Below are positions 23,829 through 32,153 of a DNA stretch of 32,153 nt, piece by piece. The stretch lies in the UHGV virus genome UHGV-0053799, one strand, 5' to 3'. Source of the DNA: a virus. The first letter of the stretch is position 1, and each line of letters begins with the position of its first letter. Made by a program: the position numbers and the translations under genes. The notes under the pieces are model-generated. The model worked only from the letters and a program-made list of their open reading frames with translations. It had not been told where the DNA came from and searched no databases.

Positions 23829-24527
23829 TTACAACTTCGTCATTGCTGACTCAAATTCATCATTAAATGGCTTAATTTGAGATGATGTTAGTTTTTTTAC
23901 GAACTTTTTTGTTGTTGTTTGAACTACGATTCTACCTTCACCAAGAGCATTCCCCTGGCATTCTTTTACGAACCATTCTTGAGTTACTGATGTGGTAATA
24001 CTCATTGGGATCACAAGCGTTAATATATCTCCGTAGTCTTCTAAAACATGCGGTAACTTGCCAGAGATAAGCGTCCTGGGGTTTACCAATATATTCATTG
24101 CTTTATTATTAGAAAATTGCAACACAACTGATTGAATATTACTCCTTACTTTTCTTTTGTTTGTTATGGTTATTGATATTGCTGTATCTGTAGTGCTAGG
24201 TAAGTACATTGATGGCATTAACACCATGCTATATCGAATAGCAATTTCTTCTGAATTTTCCTTTAGCGAACGGTGTGCTAACAACAATGATGTCGCAACA
24301 GCAGAAAATGCCCCCACCCCAGAAACCCAAGTACCCAACATGGTCAAAAAAGGTATTGTAATTAATTGGTATTTAGTGTCACCATTCAAACCAACACCAC
24401 TATAACCCACGTAACACCCTATAAAAAAGAATAGACAAGCCGTTATTAAAAAAAATAATAAATGCATAGAACTTATATTTTTAAATTTCAGCAACAAACC
24501 TCTTAAAATATATTTGCATCTCTTCAT
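23829..24527 (-). CDS. Hypothetical membrane protein, 2 N-terminal TM helices + ~130-aa soluble C-terminal domain (cargo)
   Basis: 232-aa ORF; hydrophobic LLFFLITACLFFFIGCYVGY and ITIPFLTMLGTWVSGVGAFSAVATSLLLA; a 60-nt sample has 18% G+C. Confidence 0.55.
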   Translation of the reverse strand: MKRCKYILRGLLLKFKNISSMHLLFFLITACLFFFIGCYVGYSGVGLNGDTKYQLITIPFLTMLGTWVSGVGAFSAVATSLLLAHRSLKENSEEIAIRYSMVLMPSMYLPSTTDTAISITITNKRKVRSNIQSVVLQFSNNKAMNILVNPRTLISGKLPHVLEDYGDILTLVIPMSITTSVTQEWFVKECQGNALGEGRIVVQTTTKKFVKKLTSSQIKPFNDEFESAMTKL

Positions 24528-24625
24528 TTTCTAATCTCACATTAAAATCAGACACCAATTTTTGCTAGTCACTATTTTTATGATTGCCAGCATAAATGCT
24601 GGCATCTTTATCATTCTGGCACAGT

Positions 24626-25357
24626 TCACTCACTTATAATTGATACAACCTCACCTGTTTCTACATTGACACGCGCAGCAATCGTCTGTTTCACCACTCC
24701 GCCATAAGCATTAGTTCCGCGAAACGTGGTTTTCACAATGGCATGCGGGTCTTTATTCAAAATCAGATGATATACCGTTGACACATGTTTATAAGATGAA
24801 TCATCGTTCATATTATCTTTAATTAGTTTTTCCAATGGACGATAAGAACCATCCCAACCACTAAAATTACTCTGAAATGTATCAAGATTGATTTTATTGT
24901 TTAGTGACTTCGGGTCATTTTCATAATCATTAAAGCACCACCCAAGAACATCACCGAGTTTCAACTCATCATCTTTGGTAAATGTATACTCACTCATGCA
25001 GGCATAAAACGCATCTGACGCGGCGGCTGGAACTTCCTTAAAATCAATGTAACTATTCACAATATCGTGTCGTGTTTTCTTTGACTCGTTCCGATATTCC
25101 TTGAGTGTTTTTTCACCATATTCGAATGTTTTTTGGACTTTGTGTTCTGCAACGGTTGATGTTTCAGTTTTAGCAACTGGCTGGCTTTTTTCTGTTGGAT
25201 AGAGTATTGAACCAATTATGCTCAATACAAAACCACCTCCGAGATAAACCGCACTTGCACGTTTGCGGTTTGGCATTCGCACCAGTGATGGCCTGATTAA
25301 CCCGATGAAGAAAGCAACGAAAAAAGCGAGTGATAGAAAAGCGATTATAGTATCCAT
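24626..25357 (-). CDS. Hypothetical membrane-anchored protein, 2 N-terminal TM helices + ~180-aa soluble domain (cargo)
   Basis: Start placed at the in-frame ATG 25357 (MDTIIAFLSLAFF...) because AAGGA lies 6 nt upstream; the track ORF extends to 25399 without an RBS; 243 aa. Confidence 0.55.
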   Translation of the reverse strand: MDTIIAFLSLAFFVAFFIGLIRPSLVRMPNRKRASAVYLGGGFVLSIIGSILYPTEKSQPVAKTETSTVAEHKVQKTFEYGEKTLKEYRNESKKTRHDIVNSYIDFKEVPAAASDAFYACMSEYTFTKDDELKLGDVLGWCFNDYENDPKSLNNKINLDTFQSNFSGWDGSYRPLEKLIKDNMNDDSSYKHVSTVYHLILNKDPHAIVKTTFRGTNAYGGVVKQTIAARVNVETGEVVSIISE

Positions 25358-25580
25358 AGCTATCCTTTTTGCATCATCCACATAAAAAATCGACCTCATG
25401 TTAGCAACAGGATGCTTACTTTTGAATATTTGTAAGTTGTTAGCTCTCCAACCTAACTCTTTTCAACCGTCAAAAACCAGCACCAACGCAGTAAAAATAT
25501 GTCTGTCAACTAACGCCTCGCTTCGCTCGTTGTTCAACCCCGCCAGCCCTGAAAACAAGTTTCACGACTGGCGGCGTTCT

Positions 25581-25787
25581 CTATCGTCTGCGTGGTGGTG
25601 GCGCAACTCTGGACTGACCGATATCGTTAAACCGTCTGTAATTATCCCGGACTATTTCGGCACACCCGACCAACTCGTCAGGCGTCAGATTTTCGTTGAG
25701 CATAATCTGCTGTAGACGGTGAACAATGGCCATCAGTTTGATATTTTTAGTTTTATGGTGCGGTATCTCGCCTGGTATTCTGTGCAT
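25581..25787 (-). CDS. Small hypothetical protein (68 aa)
   Basis: ATG at 25787 overlaps the TAA stop of the upstream ORF (TAATG), suggesting translational coupling; no recognisable motif. Confidence 0.3.
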   Translation of the reverse strand: MHRIPGEIPHHKTKNIKLMAIVHRLQQIMLNENLTPDELVGCAEIVRDNYRRFNDIGQSRVAPPPRRR

Positions 25788-26242
25788 TATCCAAGCCACC
25801 CATTTTGCTTTGCACGCTCCACCTGTTCATCTGAATAGTTCCATATCCCATCCGTAGCAACCACTGCCCCGCCAGACATCCCCGTCTCTGGTTCATACAT
25901 AACAGCAAGGCCGAGCTGATGCATAATCTCATGATTAATTCTGAATACCAGACCACGTTCACTAAGTTCTTTCCAGTTCACAATCTTATATGCGCCCGTA
26001 TTAAGCAGCTCAATACTTAGCAAGACATAATCTTCCAGCCAGTCTGACAGGTCAGTAACATCTGTTATCCGGGCTTCAACCTTTCGCCCCGTAAACACAC
26101 CCTGCACCCATTCATGCAAAATCAGCGTGTCCCCGCGCTCATAATTACGGTCATTTTTCCGAAACTCTGCGCGTTTCTTTCCTTCCAGCACAAGGTCAAA
26201 ATATTTGGCGTGCAGCTTTACCTCGTGAATTTTTGCCATCAT
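25787..26242 (-). CDS. ASCH/DUF3850-like (PUA-fold) protein with a C-terminal extension
   Basis: GKKRAEFR fits the ASCH motif GxKxxExR; GGAG RBS; start ATG overlaps the A stop codon (ATGA); C-terminal extension contains HEIMH. Confidence 0.65.
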   Translation of the reverse strand: MMAKIHEVKLHAKYFDLVLEGKKRAEFRKNDRNYERGDTLILHEWVQGVFTGRKVEARITDVTDLSDWLEDYVLLSIELLNTGAYKIVNWKELSERGLVFRINHEIMHQLGLAVMYEPETGMSGGAVVATDGIWNYSDEQVERAKQNGWLG

Positions 26243-28524
26243 TTCCACTCCATTACTATTGAGAATCCCGGCCACTCATCAGCGACCGGATACGTGAATT
26301 TTTTCCCGTCGTAATTTACGGTCGCGCCACGCGCCAGCGCCTCAAGCTCCCATCGCTGCGGCCTGATACCGTTCTGAGCGAGATCAACGCGGATACGGGT
26401 GATTTGCAATCGTTCAGACCGGGTCAGTCTGGCCGATGGTGCAATTTCATGTGGTTTTAACGGGCTTCCGTTTCTTTGCTGACGATTTGGTGTTCTCAGG
26501 TCGTGTTTTAATGCCCCCCTGAGCGCCCTCACGACCTCCGTGTCGTTCCATTCGATAACACCGTCATCAACCAGATTAAGCACTGCTGCGGCGTGTTCAG
26601 AAGGTGTGGGAGCCGGTAACGAAGTATCACCACCGGTGAGCTTTCCACAGTTATTGACAGGACTCCGAGGCGCGGCGATGCCGCTTTTTAAAGTCAAAGG
26701 CTCAACGACCGGAACTTTCGGCACAATGCGCCAGTCCGTCGTTCTGGTGATATGAATATGACGCGCGCCGAGATGCGGCGCGTAAATGCCGACCACTCTC
26801 TCGACTTCTTCCTCGTACTCGTTAACTTCATCCGACGGACTACGGGCAACCCTGACAGTCTGACAATCGCGCGGGACATTTGCCCCACCCTGCGCGCTGA
26901 TATACAACGCAAAATCACCACTGTCTGCGGCGGCGCGTGCAGCCTCGACGCGCTCGTCAAACTCATCAGCAATGCTGACGCCGCGAGGCAATTTGCGTAG
27001 TTCACGGTAAGCCCCCATTGTCGGCAGACCAACCGTTTTAAATTGTGGGATGCGCCACGTTGACGCCCATGCGGTAACAGCCGCAGCAGTATCTTTAAGC
27101 GGTCTGCCGGTATCGTTATCGAGCTGACCATCCAGTGCATAGCCATCGATGTTTTTTGAGATGTATTTCGCGATATACCCCGCAGCACCGCCCTGGTTAA
27201 GGTGTTTTGCCTGAAAACGGTTTCGCGCGGCTCCTCTTTCGTCGCCATCCTCTTTGAGCGCATAGCGACGCATGATTTCGATAATCTGGTTACGCTGGCG
27301 TGGATTACAAAAAAGCATCATATGCCAGTGCGGCGTTCCGTCGTGGTGTGGCTCGACGACACGCAAACCGTAGACCTGTAAATCATTATCCTTGAATGCC
27401 GTGCGCATCAGGCTCCAGATGCGGCAGAGATAACGCTGCGCATCCTTTGGATTAAATGCCTCATCGTTCCAGCCGTGATTAAGCTGAACGGTTTTACTTT
27501 CGCCTTTTCTGACCTGACGAGTCGGGTGATACTTTGACGGCGCGGTCAGCGTGATAAACATCCCCACATCACCCTCTGCGGCGGCGTAACGCTCAATACC
27601 GGCAATGGTGTTCATCAGCTCCATCCGGCGAATTTCAGGATTAGAAATACTGCCCATCACCTTACTGATAAGGTCGATGCGCTCGCCGGTTTCCCTGTTT
27701 TCAAGGTCACACGATTTAAGAAATTCCAGATTTGCCTGGCGGCGTGCACGCACATCACGAATGGCATGTTTACTGGCATAAGGAGAACGGTCTTTATTCA
27801 CCTCCCCGACAGCAATCAGTAACGCCTCATGCCAGCGCATACGCTGGCCTTTGAGCTGATGAGTCCACCACTCATCGTTAAACAGACGGGCAATGGCAGA
27901 ATATGCCTGCCTCGTGGTCATCTGTCCTTTACGGTATTTTTTCCAGTAAAGCGGGGAAATATTGAAAGCACGTGCAGCGCCAGCAACATGACCATAGAGG
28001 TGAGCCTGCGCCTCATCCGTAAACAGCGATTCTTTTTCGCCATGTGCATCCACCCAGGCATCGCTGAGTTCCTCATACATCATGAAAAGCTGCGATGAGA
28101 TACGGGCAGCAAACTTTTTCAGCTCCTTGTCATTCATTCCCGGCAGGCGCGCATAGTGGTCACGCTCTGCCAGAAACAGTAACGACGCGTCGGTGTTCAT
28201 TTCATGGCGCTGATTCACACGCTCAATGCGCGGCCATAAACGACGCTGAAAAGTGGATGTGAGGAAATAAAACCCGTGCACCGGGCTTTTATTGCGCCGG
28301 ATGTAGTCATAGCGTGAAGTAAACAGCGAGCGCAAAAAGTAAGGCAGGCGGTTAATCGTGGATAAAACACCTTGCACCTGACGCATCTCGTCACGTGTAA
28401 GGGGTCTTTCGCGCCCGACGGCCTCGCGTGGCGCGTTCCATGCATAAGCACCGGTAAACGCCTTACCGGTGCCTGCAGCAAATGCTGACGGAGGGACAAA
28501 ACGCCCGGAGGCTTTAACGGCCAT
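26239..28524 (-). CDS. A: Rolling-circle replication initiator A
   Basis: Start placed at MAVKASGRF (28524), 761 aa; HUH-type motif TPHWHMMLF (about 27311-27334) and paired tyrosines YIAKY (about 27163-27177). Confidence 0.9.
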   Translation of the reverse strand: MAVKASGRFVPPSAFAAGTGKAFTGAYAWNAPREAVGRERPLTRDEMRQVQGVLSTINRLPYFLRSLFTSRYDYIRRNKSPVHGFYFLTSTFQRRLWPRIERVNQRHEMNTDASLLFLAERDHYARLPGMNDKELKKFAARISSQLFMMYEELSDAWVDAHGEKESLFTDEAQAHLYGHVAGAARAFNISPLYWKKYRKGQMTTRQAYSAIARLFNDEWWTHQLKGQRMRWHEALLIAVGEVNKDRSPYASKHAIRDVRARRQANLEFLKSCDLENRETGERIDLISKVMGSISNPEIRRMELMNTIAGIERYAAAEGDVGMFITLTAPSKYHPTRQVRKGESKTVQLNHGWNDEAFNPKDAQRYLCRIWSLMRTAFKDNDLQVYGLRVVEPHHDGTPHWHMMLFCNPRQRNQIIEIMRRYALKEDGDERGAARNRFQAKHLNQGGAAGYIAKYISKNIDGYALDGQLDNDTGRPLKDTAAAVTAWASTWRIPQFKTVGLPTMGAYRELRKLPRGVSIADEFDERVEAARAAADSGDFALYISAQGGANVPRDCQTVRVARSPSDEVNEYEEEVERVVGIYAPHLGARHIHITRTTDWRIVPKVPVVEPLTLKSGIAAPRSPVNNCGKLTGGDTSLPAPTPSEHAAAVLNLVDDGVIEWNDTEVVRALRGALKHDLRTPNRQQRNGSPLKPHEIAPSARLTRSERLQITRIRVDLAQNGIRPQRWELEALARGATVNYDGKKFTYPVADEWPGFSIVMEWK

Positions 28525-28789
28525 ATGAGCCAAAAGCCTCTGAACAACGCCTGCTGAGTTGCTCAACCTGCACGTTTAAATCAGCAAAAGACTTTGCGCT
28601 TCCGGTCAGAATATCGTGATGCATCAGGCCTGAAACGAGCTGGCTTAATTTCGGGTAATAACCAACCACCGCCAGCCATTCCTGACCGGCGTTTTTACCG
28701 CTTTCAGCTCTCTTTTTCTCGTGGAGAATAAACTGAAAGCTGTCACTGGTAACGACATAACGTTCGCCAATTTCAATACGAATACTCAT
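28514..28789 (-). CDS. Hypothetical early protein (P2 orf83 position)
   Basis: 91-aa ORF whose start overlaps the upstream stop (ATGA). Confidence 0.6.
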   Translation of the reverse strand: MSIRIEIGERYVVTSDSFQFILHEKKRAESGKNAGQEWLAVVGYYPKLSQLVSGLMHHDILTGSAKSFADLNVQVEQLSRRCSEAFGSYGR

Positions 28790-29010
28790 GCCGTTCTCCG
28801 GTAATGTTTGTTTTTTGCTTCAAAGACTGACTGGCAGGAAACACAACGCGTGGCTGACGGATAAGCCGCACGACGGGCAGCAGGTATTGGCGCGTCACAC
28901 TCTTCGCAAACCAGCGCAGAAGCACCGCAATGTTTTACCCTTGCCGCGTTAATCTGACGCTCCAGTAATTCAGCCTGTTGTTCCTGAATAAAATCTACGT
29001 TGTCCGGCAT
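28786..29010 (-). CDS. TraR/DksA-family C4 zinc-finger protein (P2 orf82 position)
   Basis: 74 aa with CxxC...CxxC (VCEEC...CVSC). Confidence 0.7.
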   Translation of the reverse strand: MPDNVDFIQEQQAELLERQINAARVKHCGASALVCEECDAPIPAARRAAYPSATRCVSCQSVFEAKNKHYRRTA

Positions 29011-29315
29011 TACCAGCTCCTTTTGTCGTTAAGTTTTTTAAATTCATCAGCGCAATAGCTGGCAATTTCTGTCGTTAATTTCGTCAGTTCATCCACGGAG
29101 GAGATTTGCTTGTGAAATACAGCGCGTTTAACAAGTAAATTGACCACATCAGACAGGAGATTTAATTCGTTCTGATAAATCGCGATAACAGACTCAGTTA
29201 TTTCGCGTTTTTCTTTATCAAGACCAAGTTGAATAAGAGATAAATCGCCATTTTTCATAACGGTGATTTTTAAGGCGTTATTCAGTAATACAACTGAACG
29301 AGAACAGGACATCAA
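29010..29315 (-). CDS. Hypothetical early protein (P2 orf81 position)
   Basis: 101-aa ORF chained by stop/start overlaps in the B-A interval. Confidence 0.55.
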
Positions 29316-29536
29316 AGCACCTCCCCGCGAGACAATCCGATATTGTGAAATTTTTCCGACTCCTGACTGAGCAGCTCGACTATCTCTACGCGGGATAACT
29401 CCGCCTTTGTGATGTGGCGAATCATGGCGTCAAGATGAGAAGAAAAGCGCGTCGCTGCGTCGGCCTGTGCTTCGGTTCTGGCCTGTTGCAGCAGTAATGC
29501 GTATTTACCGCACTGATTTTCAGAAACTGTATGCAT
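29312..29536 (-). CDS. Hypothetical early protein (P2 orf80 position)
   Basis: Start placed at ATG 29536 (MHTVSENQ...) with GGAGA RBS; 74 aa. Confidence 0.55.
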
Positions 29537-29599
29537 GACTTTCTCCAGGCAAAAAGAAGCCCCGCACAATTAAGTGCGTTAAAAACTCTGGTTAATTAC

Positions 29600-30100
29600 T
29601 TAATGCAGATATTGCTCTGGTTTTACCGACGTCAGAATTGTCGGTGCATACTCAAACAGGCTGAATAATTCACGTAATGCACGGAATAAGGCATCACGCC
29701 AGTAACATGATTCTTCATTAATTCGCCAGTATGGCTGGTTGAATTCTTTTTCAGTCAATCCGGCATGCATAAATAAAGTACGGCGCTGACTGACAGTTAA
29801 AAAGCTAATATATGCATACTCACTTGCACCGACCTGACGGCGTTTTGAGAATGCCCCACGCAGTTCATCAATTGCACAAACCAGCCGTTCACGTTCGACG
29901 TCGTTCATTTCTTCAAAACGTATCGTTGCGTGACGCTGTTTTAACTGCGCATGGAAGCAAACCGTTAGCCGTTCGCGTTCCATCATCTGATTATAATAAT
30001 CGCATGTCTCCTGCCAGCGAGGGACGGCCAGATGCTTACCAATTATCCGGCGCATAGCTGCTGGCTGTTTTTCAACGAGATTGAGCGTCATCACTGTCAT
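29600..30100 (-). CDS. B: Replication protein B
   Basis: 166-aa ORF, same length and position as P2 gpB. Confidence 0.8.
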   Translation of the reverse strand: MTVMTLNLVEKQPAAMRRIIGKHLAVPRWQETCDYYNQMMERERLTVCFHAQLKQRHATIRFEEMNDVERERLVCAIDELRGAFSKRRQVGASEYAYISFLTVSQRRTLFMHAGLTEKEFNQPYWRINEESCYWRDALFRALRELFSLFEYAPTILTSVKPEQYLH

Positions 30101-30267
30101 TTCCAGACCCTCCGGCTTTTCAGAAAGGTCAGAGCCTTTTTTAACGGACTCTGTTTTTTGGTGCGGATAATGATTCCCTTACGCCCCTTACCGTGGGTGA
30201 TGGTGAAGTCAATCGCCCTGGGGCTTTCGTTACGCAATAACTGAGCAATACAACGAGGCTCATTCAT
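30097..30267 (-). CDS. Small hypothetical early protein (P2 orf78 position)
   Basis: ATG at 30267 (MNEPRCIAQ...) with strong AAGGAGA RBS; the track start at 30291 is GTG. Confidence 0.5.
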   Translation of the reverse strand: MNEPRCIAQLLRNESPRAIDFTITHGKGRKGIIIRTKKQSPLKKALTFLKSRRVWK

Positions 30268-30277
30268 ACGGTTCTCC

Positions 30278-30553
30278 TTAACGTGGTTCACCGAGACCTA
30301 ACCACATCAACCAGCCGTCACGAATCTCTTTAGGACGGCTTTCATAAGCCAGTTTTAGTCCGTTATTCCATGCCGGAAGGTATACCCAATATTCACCAGC
30401 ACGCCCCGATACTGACTGAGGGTCAGTAATCTCAATAACTGGTAATTTCCCTTTCTCAATCATGCCCCTTACAGCTCTTGGAGTTTTACCAATGAGTTTT
30501 GCAAACTCCTGATAAGGCACGGCATCAGTCACGCTTACAAGCTGTCTATTCAT
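30278..30553 (-). CDS. cox: Cox (early-promoter repressor / excisionase)
   Basis: 91-aa ORF; ...AVPYQEFAKLIGKTPRAVRGMIEKGKLPVIEITDPQSVSGRAGEYWVYLPAWNNGLKLAYESRPKEIRDGWLMWLGLGEPR closely resembles P2 Cox; divergent from C. Confidence 0.85.
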   Translation of the reverse strand: MNRQLVSVTDAVPYQEFAKLIGKTPRAVRGMIEKGKLPVIEITDPQSVSGRAGEYWVYLPAWNNGLKLAYESRPKEIRDGWLMWLGLGEPR

Positions 30554-30578
30554 CTGCTACGATTCTCCCTTAGTGCTT

Positions 30579-30597
30579 CTAATGGCTCCTAATGGCT
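30579..30597. promoter_or_regulatory. Direct repeats CTAATGGCT x2 at 10-bp spacing in the cox/C switch region (candidate C operator)
   Basis: CTAATGGCT at 30579-30587 and 30589-30597, inside the 121-bp interval that must hold the two switch promoters. Confidence 0.45.
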
Positions 30598-30674
30598 AAT
30601 TATTGCCTAAAAGGATAACTCCAGAAGCACAACATTTCACACTATCAGCAAGAAATTACGCAATCGGAGTAATT

Positions 30675-30974
30675 ATGTCAATAGACGTTTCGGAGAAGTT
30701 GAAGCTAATCCGTGAATCTGAAAGGTTAAACCGTAAAGAATTCAGTGAATTAACTGGTGTAGCCTACAGCTCACTTTCGAGCTATGAGAGCCGGTCAAAA
30801 AACGCTGGAGTTGAAGCCATAATGAAGGTCTTACAACATCCCAGATTTACTAAATATACTTTGTGGTTCATGACTGATCAGGTAGCTCCAGAAGCCGGGC
30901 AAATTGCGCCCGCTCTCGCACACTTTGGGCAAAACGAAACAACGTCGCCCCACTCCGGTCAAAAGACTGGTTAA
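30675..30974 (+). CDS. C: Immunity repressor C
   Basis: ATG 30675 with GGAG RBS; 99 aa; C-terminal half ...FTKYTLWFMTDQVAPEAGQIAPALAHFGQNETTSPHSGQKTG matches P2 C as recalled. Confidence 0.85.
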   Translation: MSIDVSEKLKLIRESERLNRKEFSELTGVAYSSLSSYESRSKNAGVEAIMKVLQHPRFTKYTLWFMTDQVAPEAGQIAPALAHFGQNETTSPHSGQKTG

Positions 30975-31089
30975 CAATTTATCGTGAATATATTCATCAC
31001 AAGTGCCTACTATTGGTGGCTAAATTTCAGCCACCACGAAAAAAGCGATTAGTAGTAGCAAAAAAAAGTACCACTCGGAGGGTTTTCTG

Positions 31090-32103
31090 ATGGCAATCAA
31101 AAAACTCGATGATGGTCGATATGAAGTGGACATCCGCCCTACTGGACGTAACGGAAAACGCATCCGTAGGAAGTTTGATAAGAAAAGCGAAGCTGTCGCT
31201 TTCGAAAAATACACGTTGTACAACCACCACAATAAAGAATGGCTATCAAAACCAACAGACAAACGACGTCTGTCGGAACTGACACAGATCTGGTGGGATT
31301 TAAAGGGTAAACACGAAGAGCATGGGAAATCTAATCTTGGAAAAATTGAAATCTTCACAAAAATAACGAATGACCCATGCGCATTTCAAATCACGAAATC
31401 CCTTATCAGCCAGTACTGCGCCACCCGAAGAAGTCAGGGTATTAAACCTTCGAGTATCAATCGTGATTTAACATGTATTAGCGGCATGTTTACAGCCCTG
31501 ATTGAAGCGGAGTTATTCTTTGGTGAGCACCCTATCAGAGGGACAAAGAGGCTTAAGGAGGAAAAACCAGAAACAGGCTATCTCACACAGGAAGAAATTG
31601 CCTTACTGCTTGCAGCACTTGACGGCGACAACAAAAAGATTGCGATTCTTTGCCTGAGTACAGGAGCACGTTGGGGAGAAGCAGCTCGTTTGAAAGCAGA
31701 AAATATCATCCATAACCGCGTCACGTTTGTTAAAACGAAAACAAACAAACCACGCACCGTCCCGATCTCAGAGGCTGTTGCCAAAATGATCGCGGATAAC
31801 AAACGAGGTTTTTTATTCCCTGATGCTGATTACCCTCGCTTCAGACGAACAATGAAAGCAATAAAACCGGATTTGCCAACGGGGCAAGCCACACATGCAC
31901 TAAGGCACAGCTTTGCCACTCATTTCATGATTAATGGAGGAAGTATTATCACGCTACAACGGATACTAGGTCACACGCGGATTGAGCAAACTATGGTTTA
32001 CGCTCATTTTGCGCCAGAGTACCTTCAGGACGCCATTTCTCTTAATCCGCTAAGAGGTGGTACTGAAGCCGAGAGTGTCCACACAGTGTCCACAGTAGAG
32101 TAA
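31090..32103 (+). CDS. int: Tyrosine integrase
   Basis: 337-aa ORF with GGAGGG RBS; C-terminal catalytic region HALRHSFATHF...GHTRIEQTMVYAHF; same length and position as P2 Int. Confidence 0.9.
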   Translation: MAIKKLDDGRYEVDIRPTGRNGKRIRRKFDKKSEAVAFEKYTLYNHHNKEWLSKPTDKRRLSELTQIWWDLKGKHEEHGKSNLGKIEIFTKITNDPCAFQITKSLISQYCATRRSQGIKPSSINRDLTCISGMFTALIEAELFFGEHPIRGTKRLKEEKPETGYLTQEEIALLLAALDGDNKKIAILCLSTGARWGEAARLKAENIIHNRVTFVKTKTNKPRTVPISEAVAKMIADNKRGFLFPDADYPRFRRTMKAIKPDLPTGQATHALRHSFATHFMINGGSIITLQRILGHTRIEQTMVYAHFAPEYLQDAISLNPLRGGTEAESVHTVSTVE

Positions 32104-32153
32104 CGTTTAAGGGCTTTCAGTGGTAATTTATGCCGCTCAAACCCGCATTGTAC

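Follow-up and report, generated by a model that had tools for sequence, protein, structure and literature searches.

The immunity repressors C of P2-type phages bind directly repeated half-sites and not palindromes (PMC1904268, PMC2995052). In the three operators that have been mapped, half-sites of 8-10 bp lie 22, 26 or 34 bp from centre to centre, about two to three helical turns (PMC1904268), and one C dimer alone reaches over two successive major grooves (PMC1904268, PMC2995052). For P2 Hy dis, the published description gives an operator with two 8-bp half-sites placed 26 bp apart, which flank the -35 hexamer of the promoter Pe and of which one carries a natural point mutation (PMC1904268, PMC2995052). 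The Cox protein of P2 recognizes the cox-box, TTAAA(G/C)NC(A/C), whose copies start 10-11 bp apart and overlap the -10 and -35 hexamers of the promoter Pc (PMC3936717, PMC5009727). The Pc region of P2 is the operator that Cox protects (PMC3936717). The Cox protein of WPhi is divergent and is reported not to make use of cox-boxes (PMC5009727).

The DNA analysed here, referred to as the window, is a stretch of 32,153 nucleotides of the virus genome UHGV-0053799. In the window a spacer of 121 bp (30554-30674) separates the start of cox (30553, - strand) from the ATG of C (30675, + strand). The original prediction placed both promoters of an immunity switch in this spacer. It further read two exact 9-bp direct repeats, CTAATGGCT, lying one helical turn apart, as half-sites of the C operator which define the immunity specificity of the prophage. 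The first part was supported by homology to P2, from which both promoters were predicted. The repeats were found at both positions as well, as part of a 10-bp tandem. As set out below, their assignment to C was not supported, and they are better explained as part of an operator for Cox.

The two genes of the switch are the following.

30278-30553, - strand: cox, encoding a protein of 91 aa, repressor of Pc and excision directionality factor (Pfam Phage_Cox, E = 1.7e-42).
30675-30974, + strand: C, encoding the immunity repressor of 99 aa with a helix-turn-helix (Pfam HTH_3).

The Cox protein of the window is 84% identical to P2 Cox, and its C protein is 65% identical to P2 C. The stretch from cox over the spacer to C is 100% identical to Escherichia phage vB_EcoM-720R8 and approx. 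73% identical to P2, and 349 of 5,426 complete E. coli genomes contain the switch. Neither Cox nor C differs from its counterpart in the defective P2-like prophage of B-DolR, an E. coli B derivative, and this prophage is 98.3% identical to the window over 26576-32153. Presumably, the immunity region of P2 Hy dis was acquired from the E. coli B prophage.

The primer A3-44, described as Hy dis-specific and directed at the operator fragment (CCTTTCAGATTCACGG; PMC1904268), matched 30710-30725 exactly, as its reverse complement. The three-way identity of the C proteins of P2, the window and WPhi was 38%, which is the figure published for P2, Hy dis and WPhi (PMC1904268). Because of this exact primer match, the Cox and C proteins identical to those of E. 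coli B and the 38% three-way identity of C, we concluded from sequence comparison, in which Hy dis was represented by its published description and the primer, that the window contains a P2-like prophage's switch between lysis and lysogeny, of the immunity type of E. coli B / P2 Hy dis. Two details differ. The pairwise identity between the window C and WPhi C was 49.5%, compared to a published value of 44% for Hy dis. Hy dis Cox was reported to have T25 and E33 (PMC3936717), whereas the window Cox has T24-P25 and E33, so that the remark on T25 does not fit. Among the protein names listed for homologues and cluster relatives of C, none referred to Hy dis. The switch type as such is not new: it is commonly met in E. 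coli, and experiments have characterized it in P2 Hy dis.

A longer reading of C, initiated at a TTG and comprising 123 aa (30603-30974), is given in the annotation of E. coli W (ADT75726.1) and by some metagenome calls. Its TTG start would fall in the Pc region. The ATG at 30675, giving 99 aa, is the start shared with P2 C.

In the annotated P2 record, turned to the orientation of the window, the -35 and -10 of Pc are found 18-43 bp from the cox ATG. O2, the -10 of Pe and O1 adjoin gene C and lie partly inside it. The -35 of Pe, TTGACA, is situated on the opposite strand across the start codon of C (ATGTCAA), and the complete annotated P2 Pe reads TTGACA, 17 bp, TAGTAT. The ATGTCAA is retained in the window and is common to most C types. 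A scan of 30400-30800 for sigma-70 sites and terminators detected none, at thresholds that exclude a weak Pc and a Pe -10 matching at 3/6 positions. The promoters were therefore placed by homology to annotated P2, which gave the following elements.

30598-30603, + strand: predicted -10 of Pc, AATTAT, positional homologue of the -10 TATAAT in the annotated P2 Pc and of the TATAAT in the locus L027.
30653-30658, - strand: predicted -10 of Pe, TAATTT, 17 bp from the -35, the same geometry as in the annotated P2 Pe.
30676-30681, - strand: predicted -35 of Pe, TTGACA, overlapping codons 1-3 of C, with position and sequence as in the annotated P2 Pe -35.

With this homology-based placement the predicted switch promoters are face-to-face (convergent) and the genes divergent. 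The predicted Pe would read leftward into cox, and the predicted Pc rightward into C.

The repeats are located at the cox end of the spacer, where we distinguished the following features.

30564-30569, - strand: probable Shine-Dalgarno sequence of cox, GGGAGA, as read from the sequence.
30574-30613, no strand given: box array with 10-bp phasing, proposed Cox operator over Pc, which aligns with the Pc region of P2.
30579-30587, + strand: box 1, the first exact copy of CTAATGGCT, overlapping the predicted -35 region of Pc.
30589-30597, + strand: box 2, the second exact copy of CTAATGGCT, within the predicted Pc spacer and abutting the predicted Pc -10.

The full repeat unit is a 10-bp tandem, GCTTCTAATG / GCTCCTAATG / GCT, at 30575-30597. 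When the spacer was shuffled with its dinucleotides preserved, direct repeats of 9 bp or more without mismatch were obtained at an offset of 9-12 in 32 of 20,000 shuffles, and at any offset between 5 and 59 in 85 of 5,000. Since only 32 of 20,000 shuffles matched, we concluded that the CTAATGGCT pair is real and locally non-random. No enrichment of CTAATGGCT was detected elsewhere in the window (3 matches at one mismatch or less, 5.7 expected). The repeats were present and unchanged in all of 51 further loci with this immunity type. Almost all related spacers keep an ATTCTCC block.

A perfect 8-bp inverted repeat, GTGCTTCT / AGAAGCAC, was noticed at 30573-30580 / 30623-30630, on either side of the box array. 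Its reading as an RNA structure was rejected, as the common variant 30629 A>G breaks the pairing, which makes it improbable that the inverted repeat is conserved as a structure. RNA families of Rfam were searched for in 30200-31100 (E <= 1), and none was found.

The position of the repeats was compared with that of the P2 operators, a comparison that had been proposed as a check of the C-operator assignment. In a three-way alignment the CTAATGGCT copies were found opposite P2 AATTGCGTTTAATGTCT, immediately upstream of the Pc -10 and far from the positions of O1 and O2. While O1 and O2 of P2 adjoin C, the repeats match the -35 and spacer of P2 Pc instead. They do not flank the predicted Pe hexamers, which lie 56-79 bp off, next to C, and, counted from the predicted start of Pe, they would be situated some 50-67 bp downstream. 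An operator of C at this place, setting the immunity specificity, would agree with the binding of P2-type C to direct repeats (a premise of the original prediction that was borne out; PMC1904268, PMC2995052) and with repeats that are exact, non-random and invariant within the immunity type, but it would sit over the Pc homologue, with a spacing of 10 bp instead of the 22-34 bp known from the three mapped C operators (PMC1904268). The binding of one C dimer to both CTAATGGCT copies was considered separately and ruled out by the spacing, the orientation and the lack of type specificity.

Further evidence came from related phages. We collected 108 loci encoding a P2-type Cox, gave them the orientation of the window and cut out their spacers, which represented approx. 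15 C types. A position weight matrix (PWM) was built from 14 C types, leaving out the type of the window. The consensus of the PWM was TTTAAT(T/G)GC(T/C), and in 14/14 types the boxes were found on one strand at approx. +24, +34 and +44 from the cox ATG. In the window the PWM gave 12.6 bits at 30578-30587 (+25) and 11.4 bits at 30588-30597 (+35), and this was the only phased same-strand pair in the 32-kb window. A third window box remained below the PWM threshold, with weaker units at about 30568, 30598 and 30604. Read in cox-sense, the array of the window is composed of two strong boxes and two weaker flanking units (ATTAGAAGCA, ATTAGGAGCC, ATAATTAGCC, CTTTTAGGCA). The other C types have three or four boxes each in a 10-bp register, for example ATTAATTGCT CTTAATGGGT TTTAATTGCC or TTTAATTGCT CCTAATGGCT ATTAATTGCC. 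In the loci L012, L013 and L016, whose C is of another type, exact CCTAATGGCT was present at the position of box 2. The proposal that the pair defines the immunity specificity was not supported by these data, as the box array occurs in 14 other C types and exact CCTAATGGCT in the unrelated type of L012. Because the array is common to heteroimmune phages, the CTAATGGCT pair is most likely not an immunity determinant.

Taken from the cox-sense strand and set in the register of the published box, the consensus of the family reads TTAAA(A/G)GC(A/C), a sequence close to the published cox-box. In the Pc region of P2, the boxes in cox-sense matched the published cox-box at 8/8 (TTAAACGCA), 6/8 (TATAAGACA) and 7/8 (TAAAAGGCA) positions and were 9-10 bp apart. 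The two boxes of the window matched at 6/8 (TTAGAAGCA) and 5/8 (TTAGGAGCC), a level that is common by chance; matches of at least 6/8 occur approx. 2.6 times per 100 bp in the window, and for single boxes the degenerate published consensus, when scanned by itself, therefore lacks significance. The experimentally defined Cox site in P2 attP was used as a positive control for the PWM derived from Pc and was recovered in part, with one box only (8.2 bits). In the WPhi spacer no PWM match was found. All loci found through a P2-type Cox had the box array, and it was absent with WPhi-type Cox. Two properties of published cox-box arrays recur in the window: several boxes follow each other at 10-11 bp, and the array covers the -35 and -10 of Pc, as judged by alignment with the annotated P2 Pc, the window Pc itself being predicted. 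We concluded that, by position and by sequence, the box array is most likely the homologue of the P2 cox-box array.

The repeats might also be kept without any dedicated binding protein, as core or upstream sequence of Pc or as a small tandem duplication that is maintained as part of the promoter and of the cox 5' leader. Such an origin would be compatible with the overlap with the predicted Pc -35 and spacer, with the moderate match of single boxes to the published cox-box and with the poor recovery of the attP Cox site by the PWM. Still, it is unlikely in view of an array of three to four units, strictly phased at 10 bp, in a single orientation and at a fixed distance from cox in 14 C types, which is more than a weak promoter needs. 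The array is moreover lost with the divergent WPhi Cox, and the equivalent region of P2 is a Cox-protected operator (PMC3936717).

The two halves of the spacer behaved differently when C types were compared. Three C types were found together with a 100% identical Cox. Among these, the cox-proximal 56 nt of the spacer were 80-89% identical, while the C-proximal 60 nt were 52-60% identical, with a shuffled baseline of approx. 50%. Over all pairs (p values nominal, pairs not independent), the identity of the right half correlated with that of the C N-terminal domain with rho 0.52 and with that of Cox with rho 0.07; for the left half the correlation with Cox was rho 0.47 (p again nominal, for the same non-independent pairs). 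The C-proximal half could not be aligned between types and bears type-specific direct repeats. We concluded that the C-proximal half of the spacer changes with the C type and that the cox-proximal half is kept.

Within the immunity type of the window (51 loci, 15 haplotypes), 14 variable sites were counted in 211 bp. None of them was located in 30554-30627; a candidate TCGGAG half-site held one, and the predicted Pe -35 another. Most of the others fell into one stretch.

30628-30652, no strand given: variable central stretch with 11/14 polymorphic sites, between the predicted start sites of Pc and Pe.

This polymorphism hotspot of 25 bp coincides with the part of the spacer where the transcripts of Pc and Pe would overlap. 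The box array and the Pe/operator region are both conserved, and thus both matter; which protein binds to them is not told by conservation.

Direct repeats that could serve as C operator were searched for at the C end of the spacer, and a candidate pair was found.

30664-30671, + strand: candidate C half-site TCGGAGTA, between the predicted -35 and -10 of Pe.
30690-30697, + strand: candidate second C half-site TCGGAGAA, inside codons 6-8 of C.

The two sequences are 26 bp apart and flank the predicted Pe -35 at 30676-30681. They constitute one of only two 7/8 direct repeats with a spacing of 15-40 bp in 30620-30730. As a positive control, the same search recovered the annotated O1/O2 pair of P2, ATCTAAAC, at 22 bp. 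Relatives with the same YSSLSSYESRSK recognition helix kept the sequence from roughly -24 to +30 relative to the ATG of C. In half-site length, spacing, flanking of the Pe -35 and the presence of one mismatch, TCGGAGTA and TCGGAGAA agree with the operator of Hy dis as given in its published description (PMC1904268). We concluded from these sequence features that C most likely binds to the direct repeats TCGGAGTA and TCGGAGAA, and that the immunity sites are most likely located approx. 80 bp from the CTAATGGCT pair, at the start of gene C. With a candidate at 30664-30697 that fits the published Hy dis operator, with the CTAATGGCT boxes shared by 14 other C types and with the opposite half of the spacer varying with the C type, it is highly improbable that the CTAATGGCT copies are the C half-sites which set the immunity specificity.

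Our preferred reading is that the CTAATGGCT pair represents boxes 1 and 2 of a Cox operator over the predicted Pc, and that the immunity sites are TCGGAGTA and TCGGAGAA. To this reading we assign a probability of roughly 0.8. It builds on sequence, positions, homology and cross-type conservation, from which the promoter assignments and the binding by Cox and C were deduced. In the lysogen, C at the two TCGGAG sites would block the Pe -35. After derepression, Pe would transcribe cox, and Cox would oligomerise along the phased boxes; following the model for P2 (PMC3936717), each helical turn would take up one protomer. Cox on the boxes would occlude the -35 and -10 of Pc, and the synthesis of C and int would be turned off. 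Cox would also act at the att site.

IHF, Fis or another architectural protein of the host might occupy the array instead of Cox or besides it, as might C at high concentration in autoregulation of Pc. The array is AT-rich and phased, and P2 C was reported to up- and down-regulate its own promoter (PMC3448106). The autoregulation in P2 has, though, been attributed to C bound at O1/O2, near the RNA polymerase at Pc (PMC1904263), and the presence of the array tracks the type of Cox. We consider binding by one of these proteins very improbable.

If the array is a Cox operator, the exact identity of its two central copies would be a coincidence, in which neighbouring degenerate boxes converged. 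Box 1 is two substitutions away from the usual TTTAATTGCT. A further idea concerns the Cox protein. In the region of the recognition helix the window Cox reads KTPRAVRGMIE and P2 Cox KSTGAVRRMID, with differences at residues 24-26, 30 and 33; positions in the region of residues 24-33 were discussed as DNA-contacting in the paper on the P2 Cox structure (PMC3936717). Because the window Cox differs from P2 Cox in these recognition-helix residues, it could be proposed that Cox and its boxes have co-evolved to another specificity, TTAG(G/A)AGC(C/A), which would alter the bias or bistability of the switch compared to P2 and still allow Cox to work on an att site identical to that of P2. The identical neighbouring boxes could, in this immunity class, form a nucleation site for the Cox filament that is unusually strong or has another phase. 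We regard this proposal as unlikely.

The att side of the phage is represented at the end of the window.

32093-32153, no strand given: second Cox target, the Cox-binding region of the att site, truncated by the end of the window; identical over the 61 bp present to the annotated Cox protein_bind feature of P2 attP (P2 24399-24472).

The stretch 32076-32153, which comprises the last part of int and 50 bp following it, is identical to the P' arm of P2 (TGTGGACA repeats) and to the annotated attP Cox site. As the int/att side is identical to P2, the phage combines a P2-identical int/att-side module with an immunity module that is not that of P2.

The E. coli B prophage adjoins yegR. On the - strand of the window, at 23829-25399, two adjacent open reading frames of 232 aa and 257 aa are located between the portal gene and the replication gene A; neither gave a match in Pfam or PADLOC. 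At the corresponding position the E. coli B prophage contains an ABC-three-component system and an AAA ATPase. Since this prophage is otherwise 98% identical and carries other genes there, 23829-25399 looks like a variable cargo/defence hotspot of P2-like phages with uncharacterized cargo. Adjoining this region, a 162-aa open reading frame (25787-26275, - strand) has DUF3850/ASCH and DUF7415 domains.

For the annotation of P2-like prophages, these results suggest that the conspicuous repeats spaced by one helical turn beside cox indicate the Cox operator at Pc. Immunity would be determined by a less conspicuous pair of repeats, two to three turns apart, around Pe and partly inside C. Immunity typing by the CTAATGGCT pair would wrongly group heteroimmune phages. 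In the loci compared, approx. 15 C types are combined with a Cox and a box array that hardly change, which shows module swapping within a spacer of 120 bp; no new principle is involved.

Among the systems described earlier, the cox-box array at Pc of P2 resembles the array of the window in its position relative to cox and Pc, in the 10-bp phasing and in the single orientation of the boxes. It differs in that the window boxes are further from the published consensus and that two neighbouring boxes are identical over 9 bp. The recognition-helix region of Cox is different as well, and the binding of Cox to the window boxes is predicted. The C operator of P2, O1/O2 (ATCTAAAC), whose half-sites are 22 bp apart and flank the Pe -10, has the logic of direct repeats in common with the CTAATGGCT pair. 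Unlike that pair it lies next to C and not next to cox, it has a spacing of 22 bp compared to 10 bp, and its sequence is type-specific. The Apl operator at pR-pL of phage 186 is similar in that a directionality factor is the lytic repressor, the direct repeats are spaced by one turn and the promoters are face-to-face (PMC7498355); Apl belongs to a different branch of the protein family, its sites have a different sequence and the immunity of 186 is of the CI/CII type. As described in PMC1904268 and PMC2995052, the switch of P2 Hy dis (Renberg-Eriksson et al. 2001) shares with the window the 8-bp C half-sites spaced 26 bp apart with one mismatch, the primer A3-44 and E33 in Cox, and it departs from the window in the published 44% identity to WPhi C and in the remark on T25.
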